DNA of 24,000 nt from an uncultured beta proteobacterium (GTDB lineage: Bacteria; Pseudomonadota; Gammaproteobacteria; Burkholderiales; SG8-41), in NCBI GenBank assembly GCA_963804885.1, contig CAWDSF010000018.1:218717-242716 (forward strand). Direction: 5' to 3'. Both the position numbers and the translations under genes were made by a program. Under the pieces are notes generated by a model, which worked only from the letters and a program-made list of their open reading frames with translations, was not told the origin of the DNA and ran no database searches. Positions 533 to 23,536 of this stretch are shown here, piece by piece. Position 1 is the stretch's first letter; the number at the start of each line of letters is the position of its first letter.

Positions 533-1372
533 ATGCAACACCTGATGCGGAATATCGTGGGCACGCTGGCCGTGCTGGCGCTGGTCGCCGGCTGTGCAAC
601 GCCGCCGGAGCGCAGTGCGGGCAAGGCTGGCAGCATCGAAATATGGTGGCTCGGCCAGTCGGCCATGCGCATCACGACGGTAAGCGGCAAGGTCATCATG
701 CTTGACCCGTGGATCCTCGGCAATCCGAAGATACCGCCTCAGTTCAAGAATCTCGACGCGCTCGGCAAGCTGGACCTGATACTCGTCACGCATGCGCATG
801 GCGACCATCTCGGCGACGCGGTGGCGCTGGCGAAGAAGAACAATGTCCCGATGTGGGCACCGGCCGGCCTTAACCAGCAATTGCAGACGCTTGGCGAGTT
901 GCCGGCCGAACTGTCGCCGCGCATGAACAAGGGCGGCACCATACAGCCGTTTCCGGGCGTAAAAATCACCCAGGTGCACGCCGAGCACAGCTCGGAAATT
1001 CTGTGGACCGACCCGGCGACGAAGAAGCAGCACACACTGTTCGGCGGCGAGCCGGTCGGCTTCATCATCGAGCTCGAAAACGGCTTCAGGATCTATCACA
1101 TGGGCGACACCGGGCTGTTCGGCGACATGAAATTGATCGGCGACTATTACAAGCCCGATCTCATCATGGTGCCGATCGGCGGGCATTACGTGATGAACCC
1201 GTGGGACGCCGCGAAGGCCACCAAGGAATTCCTGCAGCCGAAGTATGCGATTCCGATGCACTACGCGAGCAATCCATTTCTGGTCGGTACGCCGCAGGAG
1301 TACATGGACGCGCTGGGCAATTATCCGGTCAAGGTCTATCCGATCAATCCCGGCGACAAATTGCGGTTCTGA
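533..1372 (+). CDS. MBL-fold metal-dependent hydrolase (UPF0173-like), predicted lipoprotein
   Basis: HxHxDH metal motif (LVTHAHGDHLGD), plus later HMGDTG and PIGGHY typical of the beta-lactamase-fold UPF0173 family. The N-terminus LAVLALVAGC|ATPP fits a lipobox. GGAGGA SD lies 8 nt upstream of the ATG. 21-nt gap to the upstream gene. Confidence 0.8.
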   Translation: MQHLMRNIVGTLAVLALVAGCATPPERSAGKAGSIEIWWLGQSAMRITTVSGKVIMLDPWILGNPKIPPQFKNLDALGKLDLILVTHAHGDHLGDAVALAKKNNVPMWAPAGLNQQLQTLGELPAELSPRMNKGGTIQPFPGVKITQVHAEHSSEILWTDPATKKQHTLFGGEPVGFIIELENGFRIYHMGDTGLFGDMKLIGDYYKPDLIMVPIGGHYVMNPWDAAKATKEFLQPKYAIPMHYASNPFLVGTPQEYMDALGNYPVKVYPINPGDKLRF

Positions 1373-3882: not shown

Positions 3883-3999
3883 CTGCGGCGACAAAAGCCC
3901 CCGTACGTTGCTTGCGGTGCAGCCGGTTCGACTTCTTCAGTGGCGCGCCACTATGCCGCCGCCATGCGCTCCTCTTGAGCCAATTCAAGCTGTGCAATC

Positions 4000-4034: not shown

Positions 4035-4076
4035 GATGCCTGTTGATTTCCAGGACTTCTCTCGGGAGAAAACGCA

Positions 4077-6063: not shown

Positions 6064-6108
6064 CCGGCCGCCATGCCCAATATCTGGAATAGCTGGAGTC
6101 CCCACAAT

Positions 6109-8211
6109 ATGAGTACATCCTACGTAGTGCCTGCACCGGTAATCGAGCACGCCGCGCCGCGCGCGCTCGTGACGCGCAGCATATTCAAGCAGGCGCTGGT
6201 CGATGCGTTCCTGAAGCTCGCACCGCAGCAGCAGTGGAAGAACCCGGTGATGTTCGTCGTCTATCTGGGCAGTTTCCTGACGACGATACTCTGGGTGCAG
6301 GCGTTGACCGGCCAGGGCGAAGCCTCGTCGGGTTTCATTCTCGCGGTCACCCTGTGGCTGTGGTTCACGGTGCTGTTCGCCAACTTCGCCGAAGCCATCG
6401 CGGAAGGGCGCAGCAAGGCGCAGGCTGATTCTTTGCGCGCGGCCAAGCGCGATACGACGGCTAAAAAGCTGGCGGCCGCCGACCGTCATGCCGCGGTGAC
6501 CAAAGTCAACGCGACGATGCTGCGCAAGGGCGATACCTATCTCGTCGAGCAGGGCGATTTCATCCCGGCCGACGGAGAAGTGATCGTCGGGGTCGCGTCC
6601 GTCGACGAGTCGGCGATCACCGGCGAGTCGGCCCCCGTCATTCGCGAAGCGGGCGGCGACTTTTCTTCGGTCACCGGCGGCACGCGCGTGCTGTCGGACT
6701 GGCTGGTCGTGCGGGTGACGACCAATCCGGGCGAATCGTTCCTCGATCGCATGATCTCGATGGTCGAAAGCGCGCGCCGGCAGAAGACGCCGAACGAAAT
6801 CGCGCTTACGATCCTGCTCGTCAAGCTGACGCTGGTGTTTCTGTTCGCCACCGTGACGCTGCTGCCGTTTTCGATTTACGGCGTCGAGGTGACGAAGTCG
6901 GGCAACCCGATCACGATCACCGTGCTTGTCGCATTGCTGGTCTGCCTGATTCCGACGACGATCGGCGGCTTGCTGTCGGCGATCGGACTTGCGGGCATCG
7001 GCCGGATGCTGCGAGCCAATGTGATTGCTACGTCGGGTCGCGCGGTGGAGGCGGCGGGCGACGTCGACGTGCTGCTGCTCGACAAAACCGGCACGATCAC
7101 GCTCGGCAACCGGCAGGCCTCCGCATTCCTGAGCGCTCACGGTGTGACCGAGCAGGAGCTCGCCGATGCGGCGCAGCTCTCGTCATTGCCGGATGGCACA
7201 CCCGAAGGCCGCTCGATCGTCGTGCTGGCGAAACAGAAATTCAACATGCGCGAACGCGACATCGTCGCGCTGGGCGCCACCTTCGTGCCGTTTTCCGCGC
7301 AGTCACGCATGAGCGGCGTGAATTTCCAGGGCCGCGAGATCCGCAAAGGCGCGGCCGACGCGATTCGCCAGTACGTAACGGCGATGGGCGCCAAGTTTCC
7401 CGATGAGGTCAGCGCGCTGGTCGACAGCGTCGCGCGCCGCGGCAGCACTCCGCTCGTGGTTGCGGAAGGCCCGCGCGTGCTTGGCGTAATCGAATTGAAG
7501 GACATCGTCAAAGGCGGCATCAAGGAGCGTTTCGCGGAATTGCGCCGCATGGGCATCCGCACCGTGATGATTACCGGCGACAACCGCCTCACCGCGGCGG
7601 CGATTGCAGCGGAGGCGGGAGTCGATGACTTTCTCGCGGAAGCCACGCCTGAAGCAAAGCTCAAATTGATCCGCGAAAGCCAGGCGCAGGGGCGGCTCGT
7701 CGCGATGACGGGCGACGGCACCAACGACGCGCCGGCGCTTGCGCAGGCCGACGTCGCGGTGGCCATGAATACCGGCACCCAGGCAGCCAAAGAAGCGGGC
7801 AACATGGTGGATCTCGATTCGAATCCGACCAAGCTGATCGAGATCGTCGAAACCGGCAAGCAATTGCTGATCACGCGCGGCTCGCTGACGACGTTCTCGA
7901 TCGCCAACGACGTCGCCAAGTACTTCGCGATCATTCCGGCCGCGTTTGCGACGACGTATCCGCAGCTCAACGCGCTGAACGTGATGCATCTTGCCACGCC
8001 GAACAGCGCGATCCTGGCGGCGGTGATTTTCAACGCGCTCATCATTCCGGCACTGATTCCGCTCGCGTTGCGCGGCGTCAAATATCGCGCGGTCGGCGCG
8101 GCGGTGCTGTTGCGCGACAACCTGCTCATCTACGGCCTTGGCGGCGTGATCGTGCCGTTCATCGGCATCAAGCTGATCGACATGCTGCTCGTCGTGCTGG
8201 GCTTGATCTGA
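6109..8211 (+). CDS. kdpB: K+-transporting P-type ATPase subunit B
   Basis: P-type ATPase motifs DKTGTIT (phosphorylation site), MITGDN and [19 protein letters not shown]. 700 aa from the ATG at 6109, which has GGAG 11 nt upstream. The ORF-track start at 6073 is a possible alternative. Confidence 0.95.
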
Positions 8212-8245
8212 CGCTCAACGAATTAAAGACAAAGGACCACCAATC

Positions 8246-8818
8246 ATGTTTGCCGAATTCAGACCCGCATTAGTCATGCTGATCCTACTGACCGTTTTAA
8301 CCGGCGGCATCTATCCCGCCTCGTAACGGGCATCGCGCAATTCGTTTTCCCTGCGACAGGCCAACGGCAGCCTCATCGAGCAGAACGGCAAGGCCGTCGG
8401 TTCCGCGCTGGTCGGACAGCCTTTTTCGGATCCGAAGCATTTCTGGTCGCGCCCGTCGGGAACTTCGCCGTATCCGAACAATGCGAGTGCTTCGAGCGGA
8501 TCCAACCAGGGTCCGTTGAATCCAGCTCTGAAAGAAGCCGTCGAAGGGCGCATCAAGGCTTTGCGTGAAGCAGATCCCAACAACAGGACGCCGGTACCGG
8601 TCGATCTCGTGACGGCGTCAGGAAGCGGACTCGATCCGCATATCTCGCCCGCTGCTGCCGAATACCAGGTCAATCGGGTGGCGAAGGCCCGCGGAATCGA
8701 TCCCGCGCGGGTGAGAGCCCTTGTGGCAGAATCGACGCAGGGACGGCAACTTGGATTTCTTGGAGAACTGCGGGTTAACGTGCTCGAACTCAATCTTGCG
8801 CTCGATCGTGCCGAATAG
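8246..8818 (+). pseudogene. kdpC: kdpC disrupted by two compensating 1-nt frameshifts that create an in-frame TAA (pseudogene or sequence error)
   Basis: The ATG at 8246 gives MFAEFRPALVMLILLTVLTGGIYPAS, then TAA at 8324-8326. The same frame resumes KdpC-like sequence from 8354 ([31 protein letters not shown]...[23 protein letters not shown]...[10 protein letters not shown]) to the stop at 8818. The missing conserved block [10 protein letters not shown] is encoded at 8323-8352 in another frame. Total length (190 codons) matches KdpC. Confidence 0.85.
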
Positions 8819-8847
8819 CTTTGATCAAGCAGGGGCGCTGTCCTGAG

Positions 8848-11598: not shown

Positions 11599-12299
11599 GC
11601 CAGCCGCATCCAGTCATCGTTGTCATCGAAGACGATCCGCAGATCAGGCGCTTTCTGCGCACGGGGCTGGAAGCGCATGGATTCGAGATACACGAGGCGG
11701 AAACGGGCAAGCTCGGCATGATACTCGCGGCGACGCGCAAACCCGACCTCGTAATTCTCGACCTCGGGCTGCCTGATATTGACGGGCTTGAAGTCGTGAA
11801 AAAACTGCGAGAGTGGACGTCGCGGCCGGTGATCATTCTCTCGGCGCGCAATATGGAAACCGACAAGGTCGCGGCGCTCGATACCGGCGCCGACGATTAC
11901 CTGACCAAGCCGTTCGGGATGGACGAGTTGCTCGCGCGCATCCGCGTCGCGCTGCGCCACGCCGCGCAGCCGGAGCAGGCCGATGCGGGGCAGGTTTTCA
12001 ACTCGGGCAATCTCAAAGTCGATCTCGCGCAGCGCCGGGTATACCGCGACGGAGAGGAAGTCCATCTGACGCCGATCGAATACCGGCTGCTGACCACGCT
12101 GATCAAGCATGCCGGCAAGGTGCTGACGCACCGGCAGTTGCTGCTCGAGGTGTGGGGGCCGAGTTACGTCGAGCACAACCACTATCTGCGCATTTACATG
12201 GGCTGCCTGCGCCACAAGCTGGAAGCGGAGCCGGCCCGCCCCAAACTGCTGCTGACTGAAGCGGGAACTGGCTACCGGCTTGCGGTTGACGACGATTGA
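11595..12299 (+). CDS. kdpE: OmpR-family response regulator KdpE
   Basis: Receiver domain (VIVVIEDDPQIRRFL, DLVILDLGLPDIDG, KPF) plus winged-helix output (LTPIEYRLLTTL, GTGYRL). The ATG overlaps the kdpD stop (ATGA at 11595-11598). 234 aa. The track start at 11334 is an extension inside kdpD. Confidence 0.95.
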   Translation: MSQPHPVIVVIEDDPQIRRFLRTGLEAHGFEIHEAETGKLGMILAATRKPDLVILDLGLPDIDGLEVVKKLREWTSRPVIILSARNMETDKVAALDTGADDYLTKPFGMDELLARIRVALRHAAQPEQADAGQVFNSGNLKVDLAQRRVYRDGEEVHLTPIEYRLLTTLIKHAGKVLTHRQLLLEVWGPSYVEHNHYLRIYMGCLRHKLEAEPARPKLLLTEAGTGYRLAVDDD

Positions 12300-12350
12300 A
12301 GGCCGATTATCGGGCGGCATCACGGGCTGCAAAAAGAATAAGAGGAACCG

Positions 12351-14231
12351 ATGGATCAGGTGCATGAAGCGAAGCAAACCCGTTCTGCGCTCGCGCTCGC
12401 GGCGCTCGGCATTGTCTATGGCGACATCGGCACGAGCCCCCTCTATGCGGCCAAGGAGGTCTTCAATCCCAATCACGGCATCCCGTTCTCCACGGCCAAC
12501 GTAATCGGCGGCGTGTCGGCGATATTCTGGGCGCTGATGATCGTCGTGTCGGTCAAATACGTGATCCTGATCATGCGCGCCGACAACCGGAGCGAAGGCG
12601 GCATCATGGCGCTGCTCGCGCTCGCGTCGGCTTCCGTTAAAGAACGGGCGGGGTGGGGCGGCCCGCTTGCGCTGCTCGGCGTGTTCGGCGCCGCGCTCTT
12701 TTACGGCGACGGCGTGATTACGCCGGCGATTTCGGTGTTGAGCGCGATCGAAGGCCTCGAAGTAGCGACGCCCGCGTTGAAGCCGTATGTAATTCCGCTG
12801 ACGGTCGGCGTGCTGGTTGCGCTGTTCGCGCTGCAGCGCCGCGGCACTGCGACCGTGGGCGCGCTGTTCGGGCCGGTCATGATCGTGTGGTTTGCGGTGC
12901 TCGGATCCATCGGCATCGTCAACATCGTGCGCGCCCCGCAGATTCTCGAGGCCGTGAATCCCGTGCACGCCTATGCATTCTTGACGCAACACGGCTTTGC
13001 CTCGTTCACCGTGCTGGGGGCGGTGTTTCTGGCCGTTACCGGCGCGGAAGCGTTGTATGCGGACATGGGGCATTTCGGCAAGAGCCCGATCCGGTTCGCA
13101 TGGTTCGCGTGCGTGCTGCCCGGCCTGACGCTCAATTATTTCGGCCAAGGTGCGTTGCTGATAACGAATCCGCGGGCGGTCGAAAACCCGTTTTACCTGA
13201 TGTTCCCGGATTGGGCGCTGTTGCCGATGGTCGCGCTCGCCACCGCAGCGACGGTGATCGCGTCGCAGGCGGTGATTTCCGGCACGTATTCGATGACGCG
13301 CCAGGCGATCCAGCTGGGCTTCTTGCCGCGCACCAACATCGTCCAGACCTCGGACACCGAGTTCGGTCAAATCTATATTCCAGCCATCAACTGGACGTTG
13401 CTCGTCGTCATCGTTGCCGCGGTCATCGGATTCGGCTCCTCATCGAGTCTCGCGTCCGCGTACGGGCTCGCCGTTTCCGGCACGATGCTGATCACGACGC
13501 TGCTCACTTTCTTCGTGATCCGCTTCGGCTGGCGATACAGCCTGCCGGTGTGCTTGCTGGCCACCGGCTTCTTCCTGATCGTGGACTGCGCGTTTTTCGC
13601 CGCGAATCTGGTCAAGTTCGTCGAAGGCGGCTGGTTTCCGCTGGCGATGGGCGGGCTCATCTTTACGGTCATGATGACGTGGCGAGACGGCCGCGATATC
13701 CTGTTTCGTCACTTGCGCAAGTCTTCGCTGCAGCTCGAAGCGTTCCTGAAAATGCTGTTTGACGATCCGCCGCATCGCGTTGCGGGCACTGCAGTGTTCC
13801 TGATCGGCGATCCGGACACGGTGCCGCACGCGCTTTTGCACAATCTGAAGCACAACAAGGTGCTGCACGAACGCGTGATATTTCTGACGGTGATCGTGCG
13901 CGACGTGCCGCGCGTGCCATTCGAAGAGCGCATCGTCGTCGAAACGCTCGGCAACTGCTGCTTCCGGTTAAAGCTCCTTTACGGTTTCAAGGACGTGCCC
14001 GACGTGCCGCAAACGCTCGCGCTGTGCAAGGTGGGCGGCGCCGGCATCGACCTGCTCGAAACGTCGTTTTTCGTGAGCCGGGAAACCGTCATTCCGACGC
14101 CGGGCGGCGGCATGGCGCTGTGGCGCGACCGGCTGTTCGCGGCGATGTCGCGCAACGCCGGCAGCACTTTCGACTACTTCTGCATACCGGCGAACCGGGT
14201 GATCGAGCTCGGCACGCAGATCGAGATTTGA
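12351..14231 (+). CDS. kup: KUP/HAK/KT-family potassium uptake transporter
   Basis: 626 aa. Signature N-terminus LAALGIVYGDIGTSPLYA, GGIMALLAL and FYGDGVITPAISVLSA, about 12 TM segments, and a C-terminal cytoplasmic domain ending VIELGTQIEI. AAGAGGA SD upstream. Confidence 0.95.
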   Translation: MDQVHEAKQTRSALALAALGIVYGDIGTSPLYAAKEVFNPNHGIPFSTANVIGGVSAIFWALMIVVSVKYVILIMRADNRSEGGIMALLALASASVKERAGWGGPLALLGVFGAALFYGDGVITPAISVLSAIEGLEVATPALKPYVIPLTVGVLVALFALQRRGTATVGALFGPVMIVWFAVLGSIGIVNIVRAPQILEAVNPVHAYAFLTQHGFASFTVLGAVFLAVTGAEALYADMGHFGKSPIRFAWFACVLPGLTLNYFGQGALLITNPRAVENPFYLMFPDWALLPMVALATAATVIASQAVISGTYSMTRQAIQLGFLPRTNIVQTSDTEFGQIYIPAINWTLLVVIVAAVIGFGSSSSLASAYGLAVSGTMLITTLLTFFVIRFGWRYSLPVCLLATGFFLIVDCAFFAANLVKFVEGGWFPLAMGGLIFTVMMTWRDGRDILFRHLRKSSLQLEAFLKMLFDDPPHRVAGTAVFLIGDPDTVPHALLHNLKHNKVLHERVIFLTVIVRDVPRVPFEERIVVETLGNCCFRLKLLYGFKDVPDVPQTLALCKVGGAGIDLLETSFFVSRETVIPTPGGGMALWRDRLFAAMSRNAGSTFDYFCIPANRVIELGTQIEI

Positions 14232-14479
14232 ATTCACTCGCTGCGCTGTAGCGCGCATTTGAGCGGGGTCCGAACCGCGTCACGCGCCGGTCCATCAACT
14301 GCGAGCGGCCTGCTTGCGCCAATGTGTCGCTCGTCAATTCCTTGCCAAACGCATTATTGGCGGTGTTTGCACCGCCGTACTGACTCGCGTAAGGTGCAAA
14401 ATTAGAATAGAACAACGGGATACGACTTGCGCAATATATGCGGACACGGTGTGCGGGAGCAGCCGTCACAAAAAAAGTC

Positions 14480-14794
14480 ATGCCAGTCATCAACCCGACG
14501 CCAAAGATAGTGTCCGCCTCAGTTGCGTTTGCCGTTCTTGCGTGGCTCCTTCTATTGCTCGGCCTCATGTACGCGAGATTTGTTGTAATCGAACCCCCGC
14601 CTAATGTGGTTATCACGTTTTCCCAGAAGGGCCTTACTCGTCTCTTTACCGAGCTCATCAGCCTTGGCATCGGCGGTCTTGGCATCTTTCTCGCAGTTGT
14701 TGCCTTCGCCCGCGGCGCGCGCAGCCGGGCGCTTACCCTTGCGGGGCTGAGCAACGTATCCATTTGCATCGTTTGCGCCGCATTGCTAATGTAG
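14480..14794 (+). CDS. hypothetical small membrane protein (about 3 TM) in the lower-GC islet
   Basis: Starts MPVINPTPKIVSASVAFAVLAWLLLLLGLMY. Three hydrophobic segments. No family recognised. Its codon usage has more A/T-ending codons than neighbouring genes. The start choice (14480 versus 14438) is uncertain. Confidence 0.45.
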   Translation: MPVINPTPKIVSASVAFAVLAWLLLLLGLMYARFVVIEPPPNVVITFSQKGLTRLFTELISLGIGGLGIFLAVVAFARGARSRALTLAGLSNVSICIVCAALLM

Positions 14795-14832
14795 TTAGCC
14801 TTTCACTCGACGATAACGTCCTGGATGAGAAC

Positions 14833-15252
14833 ATGAAAAAGTCGGATGCGAGCCAAAGCCAGCCGGCATCGGAGCTTATTTCGAAAAGAATCGCCGAACT
14901 CGGGGACTGGCGCGGCAAAACTCTCGGCAGGATGCGCAAGCTCATCAAGGCAGCAATCCCTGATGTAGTCGAAGAGTGGAAGTGGAGGGGCACGCCGGTT
15001 TGGTCGCACGACGGCATCATTTGCACCGGCGAGTCCTACAAGAGCGTCGTGAAGCTTACTTTCGCCAAGGGCGCGTCTCTGAAAGATCCGGCCCGTCTCT
15101 TCAACTCGAGTCTCGACGGCAACGTGCGCCGCGCGATCGACATCCACGAAGGTGAGGAAGTTGACGAGCCCGCCTTCAAGGCACTCGTTCGCCAGGCGGC
15201 CGTCCTCAACAGTTCCGGCAAGTCGAAACCTGCGAAGAAAGCGAAGTCCTGA
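14833..15252 (+). CDS. DUF1801 (YdhG-like) domain protein
   Basis: 139 aa. The pattern RIAELGDWRGKTLGRMRKLIKAAIPDVVEEWKWRGTPVWSHDGIICTGESYKSVVKLTFAKGASL is typical of DUF1801/YdhG-like proteins (from memory). Lys-rich C-tail. Confidence 0.65.
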   Translation: MKKSDASQSQPASELISKRIAELGDWRGKTLGRMRKLIKAAIPDVVEEWKWRGTPVWSHDGIICTGESYKSVVKLTFAKGASLKDPARLFNSSLDGNVRRAIDIHEGEEVDEPAFKALVRQAAVLNSSGKSKPAKKAKS

Positions 15253-15300
15253 GGGATTCTGCCGAACGGATCGGCGGACGCGATGGCCGTGTCGAGCCGC

Positions 15301-16911
15301 TCAGTTCACGAAAAACGCGGCCGGCAGCGCTTCCACCACGTAACGGCGGTTCAGCAACTGGCTTTCGGCGAGGTCCATCGCAACGGGGTTATTGGCGTCC
15401 GTAATTGCGCGCCCGTACGCGAGCAGGCGCTGGTCGAGCGCGATGGGGTTGCGCAGCATCGCAGCGATTACGGGCAGGTGCCGCGCGGGCACGTGATTGA
15501 GGTCGTCGCCGGCGGGGCTCGGCAAGGCGGAGGCGGAGGCTACGATAAAGCTGTTGATATGCGGGGCAAGGCCGTAATCCGGCCGGTAGAGCGTGACGTA
15601 TTGCAGCTCGCTTTTGAGCGTCGTCAGGAAGTGCGCATAGGCGCGCGGCTTGTCGAGGTCCGCAAACGTGTTGAATACCGCGATGCCATCCCGACCCAGG
15701 CACCGTTTTAAATCACGGAAGAAGTCTCGCGTCACCAGATAGTCGGGCACGCCGTCGCCGTGAAAAAGGTCGACGACTACGATGTCGTAGCCGCTCTCGC
15801 ATGTGCGCAAGTAGGTGCGCGCATCGGCCTGGACGGCGTGGACTTTGCCTGGATCGAAGCCGAACACTTCAGTGGCGGCGCGCAATGAGGCGGAGTCGAT
15901 GTCGACGGTGGTGACGTCGACGCCGCGGCCGGCCAGCCGCATCGGCACCATGCCCGCGCCGATGCCGAGCACGAGCGCTTTGCGCAGTTCCGGACGGTAG
16001 GAAAAAGATAGCGCCTCGAGCGCATAGGTGTACATCGAGAGCGAACGGTTGCTGGCGCCGACGACGTTCTGCACGAGACCGTCCTGGAAATACATGCGGG
16101 TAAACGGCTCGTTGTCGCGCGGACCGCTTTTCAGGACTTTGACGGTGCCGAACGACGAGCGGTAGACCGTTTCTATGCTCCAGTTGGTGCCGCCGTACGC
16201 GGCGGGCCACAGGCGGTCGGTATAGGCGCGCGAGCCGGCGAGCAATGCCAACGACGCCGCCAGTGCAACCACTGACGTGATCGTCAGGCGCTTCCGCTGG
16301 GCAATACGGAGCGACGAGCCGAACAACATCACGAGCGGCAATGCCGCGAGCACAGCCGCCACAGTCAACGATGCGGCGAAATTGCTCATATACAGAATAA
16401 GGCCGAATGCCGTCACGATGACACCCGCGACCGAGCCCAGCGTGCTGATGAAAAATACGCGGCCAGCGCCGGCGTCGGCCAGCTCGCCGCGCGAAGCAGA
16501 TTGCCGCAACAAAATCGCGACCAGCAGAGGGTTCATAGCGGACGTTACGAACAGCGGGACAAACAGCAGCACGACGCACGCGATGAATGCGCCCAGCACC
16601 AGATCGAATTGCGCGAGCCGGTGGAACAGGTACGGATAAACGAGGCAGGCGGCGACGATCGCCAGCGCTGCAACGGCGGGCATGCGCGCAAACTGGTAGG
16701 CGAGTTTTTCCGGCGCCGGTGGATGGTTGCCCTTGCCCGCGGCCAGCTGGCCGCCGCGCCAATAACCCGCCGCCAGCGACACCAGCGTAATCGACAGGAT
16801 GCCGCTCCAGATATAAAGGCTCACACCGAAGTACGGCGTCAGGATGCGCGAGGCCAGCAGCTCGAGCGCGAGGATCGCGCCGCCGGTAACAAAAATGATA
16901 GTGGGCAGCAT
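15301..16911 (-). CDS. membrane-fused spermidine synthase-like (aminopropyl/methyltransferase-fold) protein
   Basis: 536 aa. The N-terminal ~215 aa contain about 7-8 hydrophobic helices. The C-terminal Rossmann domain has LVLGIGAGMVP (motif I), VTTVDID, and VVVDLFHGDGVPDYLVTRDFFRDLKRCLGRDGIAVFN, which resembles the SpeE D-x-x-D...LFT..F region. Confidence 0.8.
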   Translation of the reverse strand: MLPTIIFVTGGAILALELLASRILTPYFGVSLYIWSGILSITLVSLAAGYWRGGQLAAGKGNHPPAPEKLAYQFARMPAVAALAIVAACLVYPYLFHRLAQFDLVLGAFIACVVLLFVPLFVTSAMNPLLVAILLRQSASRGELADAGAGRVFFISTLGSVAGVIVTAFGLILYMSNFAASLTVAAVLAALPLVMLFGSSLRIAQRKRLTITSVVALAASLALLAGSRAYTDRLWPAAYGGTNWSIETVYRSSFGTVKVLKSGPRDNEPFTRMYFQDGLVQNVVGASNRSLSMYTYALEALSFSYRPELRKALVLGIGAGMVPMRLAGRGVDVTTVDIDSASLRAATEVFGFDPGKVHAVQADARTYLRTCESGYDIVVVDLFHGDGVPDYLVTRDFFRDLKRCLGRDGIAVFNTFADLDKPRAYAHFLTTLKSELQYVTLYRPDYGLAPHINSFIVASASALPSPAGDDLNHVPARHLPVIAAMLRNPIALDQRLLAYGRAITDANNPVAMDLAESQLLNRRYVVEALPAAFFVN

Positions 16912-17076
16912 GTCGTGGCGGATAAGCGGTCGGGTATAATGACGGCGCGTTCAGGCAGGCGCGAACGCATCGGATTGAAATTGGTTGTGCGCGAAATCTA
17001 CCAGAGTTCAAACATTGACGCGAGTTCGCAGCGCAAGGGCGGCCGGTTGCGCGCAATTTTTGAACGGGAGGACAGG

Positions 17077-17955
17077 ATGAAGAGCTTAACAAGCGGGTTC
17101 CTGCGCATCGCGGCATTGGCGCTGATGGCGGCATGCGCGAGCGCTGCGCTGGGGGCCGCGTCCAGCGTGCCCTACGTCCCGACACCGCAGGTTGTCGTCG
17201 ATCGCATGCTGCAAATGGGCAAAATAACCCCGCAGGACTATGTCATCGACCTGGGATCGGGCGACGGCCGCATCGTCATCACCGCCGCGCAGAAGTACGG
17301 CGCGCGCGGATTCGGCGTCGACCTGAATCCGGTGCGCATCAAGGAAAGCACCGAGAACGCGGCAAAGGCGGGGGTCAGCGACCGCGTGACGTTCTACGAG
17401 CGCAACCTGTTCGAGACGGATTTGTCGCAGGCGACCGTGATCACGATGTATCTGCTGCCGCGCGTCAACCTCGATTTGCGGCCGAAGATATTGGAATTGA
17501 AGCCCGGCACGCGCATCTTGTCGCACGATTTTTCGATGGACGAGTGGAAAGCCGACGAGGCGGTGAACCTCGACATACAGGACAAATACGGCGTCGGTGC
17601 TGGTTCCGGCACCAGCACGATTTACTTTTGGGTGGTGCCGGCGCGCGTCACGGGGCCGTGGCAATGGCAGTCGACAGTCGCCGGCAAGCCGCAGAATTAT
17701 GAGATGGTGCTCGAGCAGCAATTCCAGATGATCGGCGGCACGGTACGCGTCGGCGGGCGCAGCACGAAGCTGCAGGACGCCAAGCTGCGCGGCGACCAGA
17801 TCAGCGGCAATTTCACCGTCGACGTCAATGGCAGCCCGCTCAAGCACGAACTCGCGGGCCGCGTGAATGGCTCCAGCATCGAGGGCAGCGTCACGCTGAC
17901 CGGTAACCGCATGCAGGGACAGTATGAATGGAACGCCGCGCGCGGCGCCAAGTGA
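17077..17955 (+). CDS. signal-peptide aKMT/FAM173-like methyltransferase with conserved C-domain (paralogue 2)
   Basis: ATG at 17077 with GGGAGGA SD. N-terminus MKSLTSGFLRIAALALMAACASAALGAAS. Motifs VPYVPTPQVVVDRML, DLGSGDGRIVITAAQKYGARGFGVDL, MYLLPRVNLDLRPKILELKPGTRILSHDF and FWVVPARVTGPWQWQ. The track start at 16501 is an extension antisense to the neighbouring gene. Confidence 0.85.
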   Translation: MKSLTSGFLRIAALALMAACASAALGAASSVPYVPTPQVVVDRMLQMGKITPQDYVIDLGSGDGRIVITAAQKYGARGFGVDLNPVRIKESTENAAKAGVSDRVTFYERNLFETDLSQATVITMYLLPRVNLDLRPKILELKPGTRILSHDFSMDEWKADEAVNLDIQDKYGVGAGSGTSTIYFWVVPARVTGPWQWQSTVAGKPQNYEMVLEQQFQMIGGTVRVGGRSTKLQDAKLRGDQISGNFTVDVNGSPLKHELAGRVNGSSIEGSVTLTGNRMQGQYEWNAARGAK

Positions 17956-17983
17956 GAACAAGGATGAGGGAGAAGGCGCAAGG

Positions 17984-18901
17984 ATGAAGTCAATTTCAGC
18001 AATCGCGGCGGGTTTGGCCCTGCTGGTTACGTGCGCGGTCAGCGCGCAGGATTTCGGCGATACGCCTTACGTGCAAACGCCCCAGAACGTGGTCGACAAG
18101 ATGTTGCAGATCGCCAAGGTGGGGCCCGCCGACTATGTGATCGATCTGGGGTCCGGCGACGGCCGCATGATCATCACGGCGGCGCAGAAATACGGCGCGC
18201 GCGGTTTTGGCGTCGATCTCGACAAGCGGCTCGTGCAGCTTGCGAACAAGCGCGCGGCGACTGCAGGCGTAGCCGATCGCGCCGTGTTCTACGAGCGCGA
18301 TCTCTACGAAACCGATCTGACTGCCGCGAGCGTGGTCACGATTTATCTGCTGCCCGAAGTCAACCTGATGGTGCGGCCGCGCCTGCTGGCGACGCTGAAA
18401 CCCGGCACCCGCGTGGTGGCGCACGATTACGACATGGGCGAATGGAAGCCCGACGAGCAACTGGTGATGGATGCGCCCGACAAACCGGTCGGCCGCGACA
18501 AGAAGAGCAAAGTCTTCTATTGGATCGTGCCGGCCAACGCCGCGGGCAAATGGCGGTGGGAAATGCCGGTGGCGGGCAAGCCCGCCGTCTTCACCCTTAA
18601 CATCGCGCAGAATTTTCAGGCGATCAGCGGCAACGTCACCAGCGACGGCGTTACCTGGCCGCTCGAAAACGCGCGGCTGCGCGGCGAGGACATCAGCTTC
18701 ACCGTCAACGATCCGCGCGACAAGACCCGCTATGACTTCAGCGGCCACATCGCCCCCAAAGGGATTACGGGTGCAGTGCAGGTGGCCGGCGTGCGTGCGC
18801 AGAGGCAACTCGAGTGGCAGGCGGCGCGCACCGAGCCCGGTTATCCCGCCCACGCTGCGCTAAAGAAGCCGACCCTGCAAGAACTGCAGCTGGTGCACTA
18901 A
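17984..18901 (+). CDS. signal-peptide aKMT/FAM173-like methyltransferase with conserved C-domain (paralogue 3)
   Basis: N-terminus MKSISAIAAGLALLVTCAVSA|QD. Motifs TPYVQTPQNVVDKML, DLGSGDGRMIITAAQKYGARGFGVDL, IYLLPEVNLMVRP, LKPGTRVVAHDY and YWIVPANAAGKWRWE. It has a unique ~25-aa C-terminal tail (TEPGYPAHAALKKPTLQELQLVH). Confidence 0.85.
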   Translation: MKSISAIAAGLALLVTCAVSAQDFGDTPYVQTPQNVVDKMLQIAKVGPADYVIDLGSGDGRMIITAAQKYGARGFGVDLDKRLVQLANKRAATAGVADRAVFYERDLYETDLTAASVVTIYLLPEVNLMVRPRLLATLKPGTRVVAHDYDMGEWKPDEQLVMDAPDKPVGRDKKSKVFYWIVPANAAGKWRWEMPVAGKPAVFTLNIAQNFQAISGNVTSDGVTWPLENARLRGEDISFTVNDPRDKTRYDFSGHIAPKGITGAVQVAGVRAQRQLEWQAARTEPGYPAHAALKKPTLQELQLVH

Positions 18902-19741
18902 ATGGCGTGGCGCGCCCGCCTTGTCATCGCTGCGGCTGTCGTCTGTTTCGCCACGCCGTCGGCCCGCGCCCAGTTCAGCTATGACGTCCCGTTTGTCCCG
19001 ACGCCCTACGTCGTGGTCGAGGAGATGCTGCGGCTCGCGAAGGTCGGCGCCGACGATTTCGTGATGGACCTCGGCTCCGGCGACGGCCGCATCCTGATTG
19101 CCGCCGCCCGCAAGTTCGGCGCACGCGGCGTAGGCGTCGACCTCGACCCCGATCGCATCGAAGAGAGCCTTTACAGCGCTCAGCTGCAGGGTGTCAGCGA
19201 CCGCGTCACGTTCCTTCAGCAGGACCTCTTCAAGTTCGATTTAAGCCCGGCGACGGTGATCACGATGTATCTGCTGCCATCAGTTAACATGAAGCTGCGC
19301 TCGCGGCTCTACGACTTGAAGCCCGGCACGCGCATCGTGGCGCACGATTTCGACCTCGAAGACTGGCAGCCGGACCAGAAGTCGACCGTGCGCAAGAACG
19401 TGTTTCTCTGGATAGTGCCGGCAAAGGCCGGTGGCCGCTGGCGCACCACCGTGGCGCTGCCCGCGGGCGAGCGCACCTACGATATCGAAATTCGCCAGAA
19501 ATTCCAGGAAATCGACGGCCTCGCGCGCTACGACAAGAAAGTGGCGGGCCTGTGGAATGCGAAATTGAGCGGAGAGCGCATCAATTTCGTGATCGTCGAC
19601 GACAGCGGATCGCTCGACAGCAATCTTTATTTTGACGGCAAAGTCTCCGCCGATGGCATGGAAGGTACGATAGTGCGCGGCGTCGGCGCCGACCAGAAAC
19701 AAATCCCGTGGCGGGCGACGCGCCTGCCCGAGGCGAAATGA
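18902..19741 (+). CDS. signal-peptide aKMT/FAM173-like methyltransferase with conserved C-domain (paralogue 4)
   Basis: The ATG directly abuts the preceding TAA. N-terminus MAWRARLVIAAAVVCFATPSARA|QF. Motifs VPFVPTPYVVVEEML, DLGSGDGRILIAAARKFGARGVGVDL, MYLLPSVNMKLRS, LKPGTRIVAHDF and LWIVPAKAGGRWRT. It has the shortest linker of the family. Confidence 0.85.
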   Translation: MAWRARLVIAAAVVCFATPSARAQFSYDVPFVPTPYVVVEEMLRLAKVGADDFVMDLGSGDGRILIAAARKFGARGVGVDLDPDRIEESLYSAQLQGVSDRVTFLQQDLFKFDLSPATVITMYLLPSVNMKLRSRLYDLKPGTRIVAHDFDLEDWQPDQKSTVRKNVFLWIVPAKAGGRWRTTVALPAGERTYDIEIRQKFQEIDGLARYDKKVAGLWNAKLSGERINFVIVDDSGSLDSNLYFDGKVSADGMEGTIVRGVGADQKQIPWRATRLPEAK

Positions 19742-19742
19742 C

Positions 19743-20633
19743 ATGACGTGCTCGATCGACAGGGCAAGAGCGGCCTTGCTGGCGATGGCGCTGTGTGTGC
19801 TCGGTCTGGCGGGTTCAGTTCGCGCGCAGCAGCAACCCGATGTTCCCTACGTGCAGACGCCAAGGAGCGTCGTTGAGGCTATGCTCGATGCAGGGCGGGT
19901 TACAGCCAACGATTATGTGATCGACCTGGGCTCCGGCGACGGCCGCCTCGTCATTGCGGCGAGCCGGCGAGGCGCCCGCGCCACCGGCGTCGAGCTCGAT
20001 GCCAATCTGGTCGCGACCGCGACCCGCGAAGCCGCGCGTAGCGGGGAGGGCGGAAAAGCGAACTTCGTCAACGCCAACCTGTTCACGTTCGATTTCAGCA
20101 AGGCGACGGTGCTGACGATGTACTTGCTGCCGCATATCAACCTCGATCTGCGCCCGCGCATATTAAGCGGGCTGCGTCCCGGCACGCGTGTGGTGTCGCA
20201 CGATTTCGATATGGGAAAATGGCGGCCCGATCTGCGCCGTGAGATAGCGGTGCCCGACAAGGTCTATGGCCCACCGGTCAGCCAGGTCTATATGTGGTAC
20301 GTTCCGGCGAACGTCGCGGGCAAGTGGCAATGGCGCCTGCCGGTGGGCGATGTCGCCGTCCGCCACGAAGTGACGTTCCGGCAGACTTTCCAGCAATTGA
20401 CGGGCGATGCCGCCATCGAGGGCGGCAGCGCGACGATCGAAGGCGCGAAGTTGCAAGGCGACGCGATCGCATTCACGCTGGTGCATGCCAGCGCCGGACG
20501 CAAAGTGGCATACGAATTCAGCGGCCGTGTGGACGGCGACAAAATAGCCGGCAGCGTCAAGACCGGCGGCGACGACAAAACCTACGACTGGCAGGCGACG
20601 CGATTTGCGCGCGGCCAGATGAGCATCGAATGA
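19743..20633 (+). CDS. signal-peptide aKMT/FAM173-like methyltransferase with conserved C-domain (paralogue 5)
   Basis: 1-nt gap after the previous stop. N-terminus MTCSIDRARAALLAMALCVLGLAGSVRA|QQ. Motifs VPYVQTPRSVVEAML, DLGSGDGRLVIAASRRGARATGVEL, MYLLPHINLDLRPRIL, LRPGTRVVSHDF and MWYVPANVAGKWQWR. Confidence 0.85.
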   Translation: MTCSIDRARAALLAMALCVLGLAGSVRAQQQPDVPYVQTPRSVVEAMLDAGRVTANDYVIDLGSGDGRLVIAASRRGARATGVELDANLVATATREAARSGEGGKANFVNANLFTFDFSKATVLTMYLLPHINLDLRPRILSGLRPGTRVVSHDFDMGKWRPDLRREIAVPDKVYGPPVSQVYMWYVPANVAGKWQWRLPVGDVAVRHEVTFRQTFQQLTGDAAIEGGSATIEGAKLQGDAIAFTLVHASAGRKVAYEFSGRVDGDKIAGSVKTGGDDKTYDWQATRFARGQMSIE

Positions 20634-20652
20634 TCAAACCGGAGAAGAAAAA

Positions 20653-21552
20653 ATGACGCAACTGAAACATCTGTTCGGCGCTGTCCTCATGCTGGCGCTG
20701 ATCATGCCCGTGCTTGCGCTTGCCCAGGATGAGAAGGAGCGCGGCGTCGGCAACGTCGTTTACGTGCCGACACCCCAGGTTGTCGTCGATGAAATGCTGC
20801 GCATGGCAAAAGTAGGGCCAGCCGATTTTGTCATCGACCTGGGGTCGGGCGACGGCCGCATGGTGAGGACCGCCGCGAAGAAATTCGGCGCGCGCGGGTT
20901 TGGCGTCGATCTCTCCGACGACCTGCTGCGCGAAAGCAATGCGCTCGCCCTCTCCGACGGCATCGCCGACCGCGCGCGCTTCATCAAGGAGGACCTGTTC
21001 GAGACCGACTTGACCAAGGCCACGGTCATCACGAGCTACCTGTTGCCGGAAATGAACCAGAAACTGCGGCCGAAGATTCTGAATCTCAAGCCGGGCACGC
21101 GCGTGGTCGCGCACGACTACCACATGGGCGAGTGGCCGTCGGACGAGAACAAGGAAATCATCGTGCCGGAAAAGAAGGTGGGCGTCGCCGGCCGCAGCTA
21201 TGTTTACCTGTGGATAGTGCCGGCCAAAGTCGGCGGGCGGTGGCAGGCGCAGATCAATTCTCCCGCGCATCCCGGCGGACTCGAGCTCGAGTTCGTGCAG
21301 AAATTTCAGAAGCTGGAAGGCAGCGCCAAAAGCGGCGGCCAGACTGTCGCGCTGCTGGCGCCGAAAATCGAAGCCGATCAGCTGAGTTTCGCGCTCTTCA
21401 CCAAGCCCGGCGATAGCGCAACACGCCATCAGTTCACCGGCGCTGTCAAAGGCGACACCATCGAAGGGCTCGTCAAAGTTGGCGACGGCGCGAAACAGCA
21501 GCAGTTGCCGTGGACGGCTAAGGTGGTGCAACGCGTGGCGGGGCCGCAATGA
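20653..21552 (+). CDS. signal-peptide aKMT/FAM173-like methyltransferase with conserved C-domain (paralogue 6)
   Basis: GGAGAAG SD upstream. N-terminus MTQLKHLFGAVLMLALIMPVLALA|QD. Motifs VVYVPTPQVVVDEML, DLGSGDGRMVRTAAKKFGARGFGVDL, SYLLPEMNQKLRPKIL, LKPGTRVVAHDY and LWIVPAKVGGRWQAQ. Its stop overlaps the start of the permease. Confidence 0.85.
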   Translation: MTQLKHLFGAVLMLALIMPVLALAQDEKERGVGNVVYVPTPQVVVDEMLRMAKVGPADFVIDLGSGDGRMVRTAAKKFGARGFGVDLSDDLLRESNALALSDGIADRARFIKEDLFETDLTKATVITSYLLPEMNQKLRPKILNLKPGTRVVAHDYHMGEWPSDENKEIIVPEKKVGVAGRSYVYLWIVPAKVGGRWQAQINSPAHPGGLELEFVQKFQKLEGSAKSGGQTVALLAPKIEADQLSFALFTKPGDSATRHQFTGAVKGDTIEGLVKVGDGAKQQQLPWTAKVVQRVAGPQ

Positions 21553-22904
21553 GCGCGCCGGCGGGGAACGCACAGCCGCAGCGGAGACTCTCGCTCGGCG
21601 ATGCCGTCGCGATGATCGTCGGCATCGTGATCGGCGTCGGCATCTTCAGGGCGCCGGCTATCGTCGCCGGCAATTCTGCCAATGAAACGATTTTCCTGGG
21701 CCTGTGGCTCGCGGGCGGAGTTGTCTCGCTGATCGGCGCCTTGTGTTACGCCGAGCTCGGCAGCGCCTATCCGAACGCGGGCGGCGAGTATTTCTTCCTG
21801 CGCCGCGCGTACGGCGACTGGCTGTCGTTTTTGTTTGCCTGGGCACGCATGACCGTGATCCAGACCGGCGCGATCGCCGCCATTGCATTCGTAATCGGTG
21901 ATTACGCAACGCAGATGTATTCGCTGGGCACCAAAGGACCGGCAATCTATGCCGCCATTGCAGTCGTGCTCATCACGTGGCTCAATATCATCGGCACAAC
22001 CCAGGGCAAATGGCTGCAAAACATTTTGGCCCTGGTCCTTGCGCTCGCGATTATTGGCGTGGTGGCGGCGGGGTTGTCCGCGACGCCGCCTGCGCCTGTA
22101 CAGGCAGCTGCAGCTGCCGGCGCCCCGGCTTCGTGGTTTTCCGGCCTGGCGCTTATATTCGTCTTGCTCGCTTACGGCGGCTGGAACGAAGCCGCGTACC
22201 TCACGGCCGAGATGCGCGACAGCAAGCGCGGCATCGTGTATGCGCTCATCATCGGCATCCTGGTCATCACGGCGCTTTATTTGCTGTTGAATTATGCGTA
22301 TCTCAACGCGCTGGGTCTGGAAGGCGTGAAGAATTCCAAGGCGGTCGGCACCGATTTGATGAAAGCGACGTGGGGCGATGCCGGCGCGCTGGTGCTGGGT
22401 ACCGCGGTGGTGGCTGCCGCATTATCGACGCTGAATGCGACGGTGTTTACCGGCGCACGCACCAATTACGCACTGGGCCGTGACTTCAAATTATTCCGTT
22501 TTCTCGGCGAATGGCGCGCGCAATCCGATGCGCCGGTCAACGCATTGTTGCTGCAGGGTGCGATCGCGCTGGGACTGGTGCTGCTCGCATCGTCCACCCC
22601 CGACGGCTTCCAGACCATGGTTGCGTACACCGCGCCGGCGTTCTGGCTGTTCTTCCTGCTCACGGGGATCTCATTGTTTGTGCTGCGGCGCCAGCCCCCG
22701 GTCAATGCCGATCCGTTTCGCGTGCCGCTCTATCCGGTCACGCCGCTGGTGTTTTGCGCGATGTGCTGCTTCATGCTGTATTCAAGCGTGAATTATGCGC
22801 TGAGCCTCGATCCCGGGAGTATCGGTGCCATCGTCGGAATCGGTGTACTGCTCGCGGGGATCCCGGTGCTGTTCGTGGCGCGCACCGCGCAGCGTAAAGC
22901 CTAA
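21549..22904 (+). CDS. APC-superfamily amino acid/polyamine/organocation permease (LAT/SteT-like)
   Basis: 451 aa with about 12 TM segments. Contains IVGIVIGVGIFRAP and GALCYAELGSAYPNAGGEYFFLRRAYG, which are characteristic of APC/LAT-type permeases. The ATG overlaps the stop of paralogue 6 (ATGA at 21549-21552). Confidence 0.85.
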   Translation: MSAPAGNAQPQRRLSLGDAVAMIVGIVIGVGIFRAPAIVAGNSANETIFLGLWLAGGVVSLIGALCYAELGSAYPNAGGEYFFLRRAYGDWLSFLFAWARMTVIQTGAIAAIAFVIGDYATQMYSLGTKGPAIYAAIAVVLITWLNIIGTTQGKWLQNILALVLALAIIGVVAAGLSATPPAPVQAAAAAGAPASWFSGLALIFVLLAYGGWNEAAYLTAEMRDSKRGIVYALIIGILVITALYLLLNYAYLNALGLEGVKNSKAVGTDLMKATWGDAGALVLGTAVVAAALSTLNATVFTGARTNYALGRDFKLFRFLGEWRAQSDAPVNALLLQGAIALGLVLLASSTPDGFQTMVAYTAPAFWLFFLLTGISLFVLRRQPPVNADPFRVPLYPVTPLVFCAMCCFMLYSSVNYALSLDPGSIGAIVGIGVLLAGIPVLFVARTAQRKA

Positions 22905-22954
22905 TTCTTGCTAAACGTTATTTGAACCCGAACGACAGAAGAGACAAAAAAATC

Positions 22955-23536
22955 GTGGAAATAAATCTCAGGAAGCTGCTGACTGCCGCGGTGTTGGGCG
23001 CGCTGGCCTCAAGCCCCGCATTTGCCAAGGAATGCAAAGGCGTTACTTTTCCCGATCAAGTGCAGAGCGGAGGGACGACCTTGGTGTTGAACGGCCTTGG
23101 ACTGCGCCAGGCGAGCGCATTCAAAGTGAGCGTCTATGTTGCCGGTTTGTACGTTGCGCAGACGTCTACCGACGGGAATGCGATTCTGGCTTCAAATTCG
23201 CGCAAGGAGCTCGTGCTTCAATTCGTGCGGGACGTCGGCGCCAGCGATCTGAGCAAGGCATGGCAGGAGGGATTCGAGTTGACCGCGAAAACGCAATTGC
23301 CTGCGCTCAATGAGCGAATTGAAAAACTCAAAGGCTGGATGTCCGCAATGAAAAACGGCGAGCGCCTCATTTTTGTTGCGAAACAGGGCGGCGGCATCGA
23401 AGTAAACGTGAACGGAACCGTCAAAGGCACAATCGACGGTGATGACTTCGCAAAAGCATTTCTTTCAATGTGGCTGGGCGCAACACCTGTCAATCCGGCG
23501 ATGAAGGCCGGGTTGTTGGGTAGCGCTTGCGCATGA
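22955..23536 (+). CDS. exported chalcone-isomerase-like (CHI-fold) protein
   Basis: I chose the GTG at 22955 (VEINLRKLLTAAVLGALASSPAFA|KE, a signal peptide). LVLNGLGLRQASAFKVSVYVAGLYV and FAKAFLSMWLG match the bacterial chalcone-isomerase-like family pattern (from memory). The start is uncertain; the track begins at TTG 22922. Confidence 0.65.
   Translation: MEINLRKLLTAAVLGALASSPAFAKECKGVTFPDQVQSGGTTLVLNGLGLRQASAFKVSVYVAGLYVAQTSTDGNAILASNSRKELVLQFVRDVGASDLSKAWQEGFELTAKTQLPALNERIEKLKGWMSAMKNGERLIFVAKQGGGIEVNVNGTVKGTIDGDDFAKAFLSMWLGATPVNPAMKAGLLGSACA

Follow-up and report, generated by a model that had tools for sequence, protein, structure and literature searches.

Methylation dependent on S-adenosylmethionine (SAM, or AdoMet in the names of folds) is treated in bacteria as a cytoplasmic activity, and the periplasm is assumed to be without SAM. 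The closest described enzymes for the proteins considered here are the crenarchaeal protein-lysine N-methyltransferase aKMT4, which has a broad specificity (NF041081), and its distant homologues FAM173A and FAM173B; aKMT also has uncharacterised alphaproteobacterial homologues, through which a bacterial origin of FAM173 has been proposed (PMC9006661). FAM173A/B act on membrane proteins, namely a carrier and the c-subunit of ATP synthase, and are anchored by an N-terminal transmembrane domain (TMD) (PMC9006661). Concerning the bacterial surface, PKMT1 and PKMT2 of Rickettsia target OmpB (PMC8232902) and KmtA of Acinetobacter targets the adhesin AtaA, in a paper that nowhere mentions a signal peptide (PMC11784438). 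Exchange of SAM for S-adenosylhomocysteine (SAH) is established for CTL843 of Chlamydia trachomatis, which belongs to the DMT family (PMC3104491), and for the mitochondrial carrier SLC25A26 (PMC9239748). Here, we analyse a stretch of 24,000 nucleotides (hereafter the window) from an uncultured beta proteobacterium (assembly GCA_963804885.1, contig CAWDSF010000018.1, positions 218,717-242,716 of the forward strand), in which open reading frame (ORF) calls give an array of five tandem methyltransferase genes on the same strand (paralogues A to E, 17077-21552) that runs into a permease gene, with a sixth copy (F) standing apart.

The catalytic core of these proteins is known; what is new on that core is a signal peptide, a C-terminal barrel, the multi-paralogue arrays and a conserved exchanger. 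We propose, with a confidence that comes close to an even chance, that the six proteins are exported periplasmic SAM-dependent N-methyltransferases acting on primary amines, that the barrel picks the acceptor and that a carrier of the LAT type exchanges SAM and SAH. Briefly, each paralogue would be made as a precursor with a Sec-type signal peptide and then exported, and the mature enzyme would combine a SAM-binding class I core of the aKMT type with a small C-terminal barrel choosing the acceptor. The permease would be an obligatory, co-transcribed partner swapping cytoplasmic SAM for periplasmic SAH, an exchange that would both feed the enzymes and remove the inhibitory product SAH. The minimal unit would be one methyltransferase with the exchanger; in a Burkholderiales lineage, the methyltransferase would have expanded long ago to six to eight specialised paralogues, and the expanded array would sit beside a membrane protein (MFS-SpdSyn) placing a second AdoMet-fold domain, spermidine-synthase-like, in the periplasm. 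Judged by aKMT and FAM173, methylation would fall on lysine epsilon-amino groups of proteins in the periplasm or outer membrane, each paralogue having its own set of targets; protein lysine as the acceptor is only a tentative assignment.

The methyltransferase core and its barrel

For all six copies, NF041081 (archaeal protein-lysine N-methyltransferase aKMT) was the top NCBIfam match (E 1e-27 to 1e-37), by a wide margin for every copy and over nearly the whole model, and Pfam returned generic methyltransferase domains only. A profile built from the six copies matched, in the PDB, 5bxy (1e-59), aKMT itself (5fa8/5fad, 1e-51) and 5jwj (2e-50), with the next match at ~1e-9; these matches span residues 28-185 only, and 5bxy is a 158-aa Salinibacter ruber protein, a structural-genomics entry crystallised with SAH. 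The AlphaFold (AF2) model of A, with a predicted local distance difference test score (pLDDT) of 90, has a class I Rossmann-like methyltransferase fold superposable on aKMT. In Foldseek comparisons, its target-normalised TM-score (TMt) was 0.89 against 5fad/5fa8 (root-mean-square deviation (rmsd) 1.8-2.0 Å, 43-45% identity) and 0.92 against 5bxy, solved relatives as a whole lying at TMt 0.89-0.92, 43-48% identity and rmsd ~2 Å. The aKMT signature is present as well, with PYVPTP, DLGxGDG, an acidic residue after beta-2, YLLP/FLL and PGTR..H(D/E)F, and its motifs line up column by column with 5bxy and 5fa8. We regard the membership of the six copies in the aKMT-family fold as practically certain. 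In their source records, proteins of the family are labelled 'class I SAM-dependent methyltransferase', 'methyltransferase domain-containing protein' or 'hypothetical protein' only.

Motifs DLGSGDG (motif I), YLLP, PGTR and H-D do not vary among the six paralogues or across 53 family members, and by virtue of this invariance all the copies look catalytically competent. At positions 82 and 115 (numbered as in A), the six copies have acidic or invariant residues, and conservation among the 53 homologues is at least 90%. When the window is translated in all six frames, DLGSGDG appears once in each of the six methyltransferase genes and nowhere else, so that its presence is not due to chance. Three single-residue departures from the motifs were found: YLLP..N..VR in B, VYVPTP in E and YLLP..M..LR in F.

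A preliminary description of the window had listed five genes with the sizes and gaps given below, an ATGA overlap with the permease gene and a sixth copy at 1416, and the ORF coordinates agree on each of these. The motifs that it gave as common to the family are present in all six proteins, although its regular expressions miss B, E and F by one residue each. The likeness to aKMT that it had put forward was recovered in both sequence and structure (top match to NF041081, PDB profile at 1e-51, superposition at TMt 0.89-0.92). For FAM173, which it had placed beside aKMT, the link is indirect and passes through the distant aKMT homology of FAM173A/B stated in a review (PMC9006661). It had overlooked the C-terminal barrel, the conserved divergent MFS-SpdSyn, the membership of F in the same ancestral cluster and the LAT exchanger type of the permease.

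Behind the core, residues ~187-292 form a nine-strand up-and-down (meander) beta-barrel of ~105 aa, as seen in a separate model (pLDDT 86). No Pfam match to the barrel was found even at E<=10, nor any sequence relative in the PDB, and Foldseek gave nothing at E<=1e-3; the nearest folds, all weak, are lipid-binding CRBP2/FABP (E 7e-3, TM-score ~0.5) and the Cap15 ligand-binding barrel (TM-score 0.6). In a profile search of a large protein collection, the barrel was seen only fused to this methyltransferase core. Naming it by sequence failed, the same search giving only truncated fragments of the same family. Mean identity between paralogues is 53% in the core and 34% in the barrel, and because the barrel diverges faster we consider it the candidate for acceptor selection; most likely, the barrel selects the acceptor.

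The nature of that acceptor is where a second account departs from our proposal. The exported enzymes would N-methylate small molecules or lipids, with the barrel holding the ligand; free amino acids, polyamines from the spermidine-synthase-like neighbour, ornithine lipids, phosphatidylethanolamine and amine xenobiotics are candidates, the paralogues would act on different ligands or at successive steps, and the exchanger would move substrate and product, or else SAM and SAH. Indeed, the only structural neighbours of the barrel bind small ligands or lipids, the spermidine-synthase-like neighbour also acts on amines, the partner is an amino-acid transporter, and in this organism the permease gene is followed by one for an exported chalcone-isomerase-like protein of the fatty-acid-binding type. 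We nevertheless find this account unlikely, although by no means negligible, given that protein lysines are the substrate of every characterised enzyme in the fold family (aKMT, FAM173A/B; PMC9006661), that none of the barrel matches reaches E<=1e-3, and that both MFS-SpdSyn and the chalcone-isomerase-like gene are absent from the minimal alphaproteobacterial pairs described below. The supply of SAM would moreover still be a problem, and one exchanger is not obviously able to carry both donor and acceptor.

Export signals and the permease partner

In the window proteins, ~30 residues precede PYVPTP, which begins at residues 3-5 in 5bxy and aKMT. With 279-305 aa, a signal-like N-terminus and the 105-aa barrel, these proteins do not correspond to the small single-domain cytoplasmic form (~160 aa, no targeting signal). 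On a heuristic reading, each of the six N-termini shows an n-region with K/R, then a hydrophobic core, then an AxA-type site whose next residue is Q or A. Relatives were collected by scanning one genome per species, which gave 591 confirmed relatives; the best 80 loci come almost all from uncultured Betaproteobacteria/Burkholderiales of soil, groundwater and lakes. Among the 248 family ORFs from these 80 loci, a hydrophobic core is present in 98%, K/R ahead of this core in 97% and an AxA-like site in 93%, at a median distance of 11 residues ahead of the PYVPTP motif, so that the signal peptides noted in the preliminary description prove to be a family-wide feature by the same heuristics. The net charge is +1.6 ahead of the hydrophobic core and -0.9 behind it, and the N-side is the more positive one in 95% of 247 sequences. 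The elements of a cleavable Sec-type signal peptide (n-region, h-region of 10-18 residues, small-x-small site and neutral or acidic mature start) can thus all be recognised heuristically. From the charge pattern and the AxA sites we infer, with good support, a Sec signal peptide that leaves the domain outside and not an anchor that faces it to the cytoplasm, and the methyltransferases are very probably exported.

Could the N-terminus instead be an uncleaved anchor with the catalytic domain facing the cytoplasm? The proteins would then methylate cytoplasmic loops of membrane proteins, possibly those of the adjacent permease, with cytoplasmic SAM, and no periplasmic SAM would be needed. The precedent is FAM173A/B, with an anchoring N-terminal TMD and membrane proteins as substrates (PMC9006661), and in the AF2 model of A residues 4-21 are helical. 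This arrangement appears improbable to us: the charge bias predicts an N-in, C-out orientation and, with the AxA-type motif lying ~11 residues ahead of the catalytic domain in 93% of the sequences, does not suit an uncleaved TMD of the FAM173 type (a heuristic judgement), the hydrophobic cores are short (12-18 residues) and closed by helix breakers, and an anchor would not explain why a single permease is accompanied by six to eight conserved paralogues. As a separate observation on the signal region, the methyltransferase of Oceanibaculum pacificum (locus L071, 9851-10714) carries a twin arginine (SPALRRHLALALAAG) resembling a twin-arginine translocation (Tat) motif, and RR is absent from the signal regions of all six window proteins.

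Coming back to exported enzymes served by an exchanger, the permease matches AA_permease_2 (PF13520) over the whole protein, with 164 bits for a cutoff of 27, and its closest solved relatives are xCT, b0,+AT, y+LAT, BasC, LAT1/2 and Asc-1 (E 3e-46 to 1e-35, full length). The signatures GxGIF in transmembrane helix 1 and AYGGWN in transmembrane helix 6, assigned with SLC7A5 as the model, are readable in it. SLC7/LAT transporters are amino-acid exchangers, and SAM and SAH are alpha-amino acids. Since an exported SAM enzyme needs a supply of donor and a removal of by-product, and since the partner kept across classes is an alpha-amino-acid exchanger, we propose SAM and SAH as the cargo, an assignment that is possible but held with reserve.

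The permease ATG overlaps the TGA of E (junction GCAATGAGC), and within the array the gaps A/B, B/C, C/D and D/E measure 28, 0, 1 and 19 nt. A Shine-Dalgarno sequence (GGGAGGA) lies upstream of A, and Shine-Dalgarno-like sequences were also seen ahead of B and E. Consensus matches for internal promoters and terminators are no commoner in the array than in shuffled sequence, in keeping with one transcript that runs from A to the end of the permease gene; in the divergent region 16912-17076, no convincing consensus promoter was found. No Rfam match was obtained anywhere in the window at gathering thresholds, nor at E<=1 within 16800-17200, and control of the array by a riboswitch or another RNA was therefore rejected.

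The pairing with the permease is kept in most arrays. Among the 41 arrays of at least three copies with enough downstream sequence to judge, the permease follows in 33 by script, and in ~38 once five ORF-coordinate artefacts are corrected. At the 48 loci where the junction of the last methyltransferase and the permease was measured, a 4-nt overlap occurs in 19 and a gap of at most 8 nt in 28, and the distance never exceeds 214 nt while permease identity drops to 43%. Three cultured Alphaproteobacteria have a methyltransferase of the same three-part architecture, single-copy and adjoining the permease, amid unrelated flanks: Oceanibaculum pacificum (chromosome), Chelatococcus sp. CO-6 (plasmid pCO-6) and Agrobacterium salinitolerans DG3-1 (plasmid pDG3-1g), the last with the order reversed and a 17-nt overlap. 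Their permeases are 48-49% identical to that of the window. These pairs with unrelated flanks lead us to consider that the conserved minimal unit is one methyltransferase, predicted to be exported, together with this permease. Rather than being single-copy genes among unrelated neighbours, an outcome that the preliminary description had allowed for, the homologues are often multi-copy and the permease is conserved across classes, also in reversed order. At the distant single-copy loci, the neighbours found were only Bug/TctC binding proteins and genes of acyl-CoA metabolism, with noise from the overlapping-frame ORFs of high-GC DNA. Overall, we hold a functional link between the methyltransferases and the permease to be highly probable.

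This conserved adjacency to an amino-acid transporter would also be expected if the proteins were exported binding proteins and not enzymes, catching SAM, SAH, methylthioadenosine or a related amino-acid derivative and passing it to the permease for scavenging, and both the conserved residues, which are mostly SAM-binding, and the attached barrel of a ligand-binding type agree with such a role. It is very improbable in our opinion, as invariance extends past nucleotide binding to YLLP, which lies at the methyl-transfer site, and to PGTR and H-D, and as six diverged paralogues are hard to square with one ligand class. We also know of no periplasmic binding proteins for APC transporters and of no precedent for a class I methyltransferase fold used as a solute-binding protein, and both points count against it. 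Least probable of all is an adjacency that is inherited only, with the array an expansion of periplasmic or secreted enzymes of unrelated purpose: the flanks (htpG, acyl-CoA dehydrogenase and electron transfer flavoprotein (ETF)) are also syntenic in the Burkholderiales clade and most single-copy loci have no adjacent permease, but the pair recurs in three Alphaproteobacteria with different flanks, once reversed, and the 4-nt start/stop overlap persists down to 43% permease identity.

Paralogue history and weighing of the proposal

The family comprises at least 2,718 clusters at 50% identity (E<=1e-30), mostly of ~290 aa and with a common architecture. Within the window, the paralogues share 42-49% protein identity in pairwise comparisons, and the proportion of synonymous differences is 0.51-0.62, corresponding to a synonymous divergence (dS) of ~0.85-1.3, near saturation. 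The related loci have a recurrent order, F-(MFS-SpdSyn, opposite strand)-A-B-C-(C')-D-E-(APC permease), and their array positions are 45-85% identical to the window counterparts, above the identity from paralogue to paralogue. A neighbour-joining tree gave six clean orthogroups with the same internal branching in each, so that the duplications predate the divergence of these genomes and every paralogue was kept. Paralogues A to F are therefore an old gene family whose members have been individually retained, as the preliminary description had supposed from synonymous-site divergence; recent amplification or gene conversion is ruled out by the near-saturated synonymous sites and the six separate orthogroups. 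An F-type copy lies directly beside MFS-SpdSyn in related genomes (e.g. loci L005, L006, L008 and L018), and copy F belongs to the same ancestral cluster as A to E. Many relatives have an extra C-like paralogue (C'), which the window does not contain, and one locus (L055, 769-10837) has about ten tandem copies. A few database proteins contain two or three fused methyltransferase units (565-624 aa; P0121, P0122), which are either true fusions or frameshift artefacts.

The second predicted AdoMet enzyme, MFS-SpdSyn, matches NF037959 ('fused MFS/spermidine synthase') over residues 12-467, with 163 bits for a cutoff of 40. Its seven hydrophobic segments are predicted to be transmembrane helices and are followed by a C-terminal AdoMet-fold domain; the motifs LGxGAG, (V/I)(E/D)ID, DAR and DLFxGDGxP are conserved in 34 orthologues. 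In these orthologues, the mean number of K+R in the successive loops is 0, 3.3, 0.5, 2.7, 0 and 2.5; by the positive-inside rule, this pattern places the N-terminus inside, and the AdoMet-fold domain is thus predicted to face the periplasm. A periplasmic orientation of AdoMet-type enzymes is thus indicated by two lines of evidence that are unrelated to each other. The divergent MFS-SpdSyn is present in 28-29 of 32 arrays.

Several results weigh against the proposal as a whole. The signal peptides were judged by heuristics alone. All six copies miss the equivalog cutoff of NF041081 (95-127 bits for 200), so that lysine specificity is not transferable with confidence and the copies are to be taken as homologues, not equivalogs; the weak likeness of the barrel to FABP would also agree less well with a protein as acceptor than with a small molecule or lipid. 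The permease, with 183 bits, is far under the cutoff of 702 for TIGR00911 and thus represents a separate subfamily of the LAT branch. Among the single-copy loci that could be judged, the permease is next door in 3/19 and missing from 16/19, and many family members would consequently need another route of supply. Some arrays (L012, L042) and all single-copy loci have no MFS-SpdSyn, which makes it an accessory of the expanded system and not an obligatory part. Within the Burkholderiales clade, htpG, acyl-CoA dehydrogenase, ETF and housekeeping flanks are syntenic too, and conservation within the clade alone is accordingly no proof of function. Finally, no periplasmic SAM-dependent methyltransferase or periplasmic SAM was found described in the open-access literature searched and, to our knowledge, neither such an enzyme nor a periplasmic SAM pool has been reported, so that the model demands something unprecedented. 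The same literature has no description of the function of this methyltransferase family, as the preliminary description had stated, nor of the fused MFS/spermidine-synthase family.

Taken in full, a dedicated bacterial system of periplasmic methylation, with Sec-exported aKMT-type enzymes, a LAT-type exporter of SAM in exchange for SAH, and six to eight writers accompanied by a second AdoMet-fold enzyme, is rather doubtful. If true, AdoMet-dependent chemistry would be shown for the first time in the bacterial periplasm, and the system would include the first SAM exporter, with SAM export coupled to SAH retrieval; it would provide a new way of decorating envelope proteins or lipids and a plausible bacterial source for the mitochondrial FAM173 lysine methyltransferases. 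A large aKMT-like family with export signals and a welded exchanger makes the assumption of a periplasm without SAM directly testable, and the minimal two-gene module of three cultured Alphaproteobacteria makes experiments feasible.

Neighbouring genes and comparison with described systems

Table 1. Features of the methyltransferase cluster and its surroundings, in window coordinates
Feature	Coordinates	Strand	Remarks
Paralogue A, 292 aa	17077..17955	+	signal peptide ~1-29, aKMT core ~30-186, C-terminal beta-barrel 187-292 (DNA 17635-17952)
Paralogue B, 305 aa	17984..18901	+	C-terminal barrel DNA 18527-18898
Paralogue C, 279 aa	18902..19741	+	C-terminal barrel DNA 19415-19738; 0-nt gap to B
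Paralogue D, 296 aa	19743..20633	+	C-terminal barrel DNA 20301-20630; 1-nt gap to C
Paralogue E, 299 aa	20653..21552	+	C-terminal barrel DNA 21217-21549; stop overlaps permease start (ATGA)
Paralogue F, 289 aa	1416..2285	+	sixth copy, apart from A-E
APC-superfamily permease, LAT/SLC7-light-chain type, 451 aa	21549..22904	+	conserved methyltransferase partner
Fused MFS/spermidine-synthase protein (MFS-SpdSyn), 536 aa	15301..16911	-	divergent from array; NF037959
Divergent intergenic region, 165 nt, presumed promoter region	16912..17076	.	between MFS-SpdSyn and paralogue A
MBL-fold metal-dependent hydrolase, NF001911, lipoprotein-type signal (LVAGC)	533..1372	+	directly upstream of F
Chalcone_3 (chalcone-isomerase-like) protein with signal peptide	22922..23536	+	17 nt past permease

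The Chalcone_3 gene has the same position in the soil-metagenome contigs of this organism; it is absent from all 80 related loci, and was rejected as a part of the system and regarded as a lineage-specific addition. The chalcone-isomerase-like fold is known from proteins that bind fatty acids, and this may or may not have to do with the FABP-like barrel of the methyltransferases. The pairing of the MBL-fold hydrolase with F is also found in L002 and L005, and in L007 and L027 the hydrolase lies beside MFS-SpdSyn. As it occurs only in the closest relatives, it was not retained as a core member and may be accessory to the cluster. An exported protein with LTXXQ motif (CpxP/Spy-like) is encoded at 2332-2880 (-), between F and the potassium-transport genes.

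These genes (kdpA, kdpB, kdpC, kdpD, kdpE and kup, 3028-14231) separate F from the rest of the cluster and, because F adjoins MFS-SpdSyn in related genomes, the block looks like an insertion or rearrangement in this lineage. Of a KdpD-type sensor, the ORF upstream of kdpA (3028-3882, +, 284 aa) has the membrane DUF4118 and GAF portions but none of the KdpD sensor, Usp and kinase domains, and it is a clear paralogue of the complete kdpD (8821-11598) over residues ~420-600 of the latter. The kdpC gene (8246-8818) is interrupted: the frame from 8246 stops at 8324, the expected segment is encoded in an adjacent frame, and after it the reading returns to the first frame (QANGSLIEQ...). Such a pair of close, mutually compensating frameshifts suggests an assembly error or a damaged gene. 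Long ORFs of the minus strand (8311-11580, 5098-7140, 11397-13370 and others, up to 1089 aa) lie over kdpD, kdpA/B and kup; they were rejected as genes, their Arg/Ala-rich translations marking them as the shadow ORFs typical of high-GC DNA, which also inflated the raw ORF counts in related loci. Between kup and MFS-SpdSyn, the stretch 14232-15300 has a lower GC content (0.58) and is occupied by a DUF1801 protein (14764-15252) together with a small hydrophobic ORF (14438-14794). The related loci do not share this stretch, and several of them have instead an exported protein of ~120 aa upstream of MFS-SpdSyn.

Among described systems, aKMT (aKMT4; 5fa8/5fad, 5jwj) and 5bxy have the same seven-beta-strand core as the window proteins and the same motif set, in which PYVPTP, DLGxGDG, GV(D/E), YLLP/FLL and PGTR..H(D/E)F are held in common. 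They are, however, cytoplasmic single-domain proteins of ~160 aa, whereas the window proteins add a predicted signal peptide and the ~105-aa barrel, occur in arrays and are tied to a transporter. In FAM173A/ANTKMT and FAM173B/ATPSCKMT, as in the window proteins, the catalytic domain is preceded by a hydrophobic N-terminal segment, and the targets of FAM173 are membrane-associated proteins. They differ in that this segment is an uncleaved TMD anchor and the targets lie on the matrix side, the equivalent of the bacterial cytoplasm, while the window proteins are predicted to be periplasmic; they also have a 'pre-MTase' region and no C-terminal barrel, and the likeness is drawn through aKMT, by a statement in the literature (PMC9006661).

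The nearest functional analogue of the proposed activity is found in PKMT1/2 and KmtA, which represent the only described bacterial multi-lysine methylation of envelope or surface proteins. These enzymes belong to an unrelated and much larger methyltransferase family with a dimerisation domain, and are encoded by single genes without a transporter partner; among the PDB profile, Pfam and NCBIfam matches of the window proteins there was no PKMT structure or family. On the transport side, the LAT/SLC7 light chains and BasC carry standard amino acids, the human ones needing a heavy chain, and the permease described here is a separate subfamily. The role proposed for it is that of CTL843 and SLC25A26, dedicated SAM/SAH carriers serving methyltransferases in a compartment unable to make SAM; these belong to other transporter families and import SAM into a cytoplasm-like compartment, whereas the permease of this cluster would export it.

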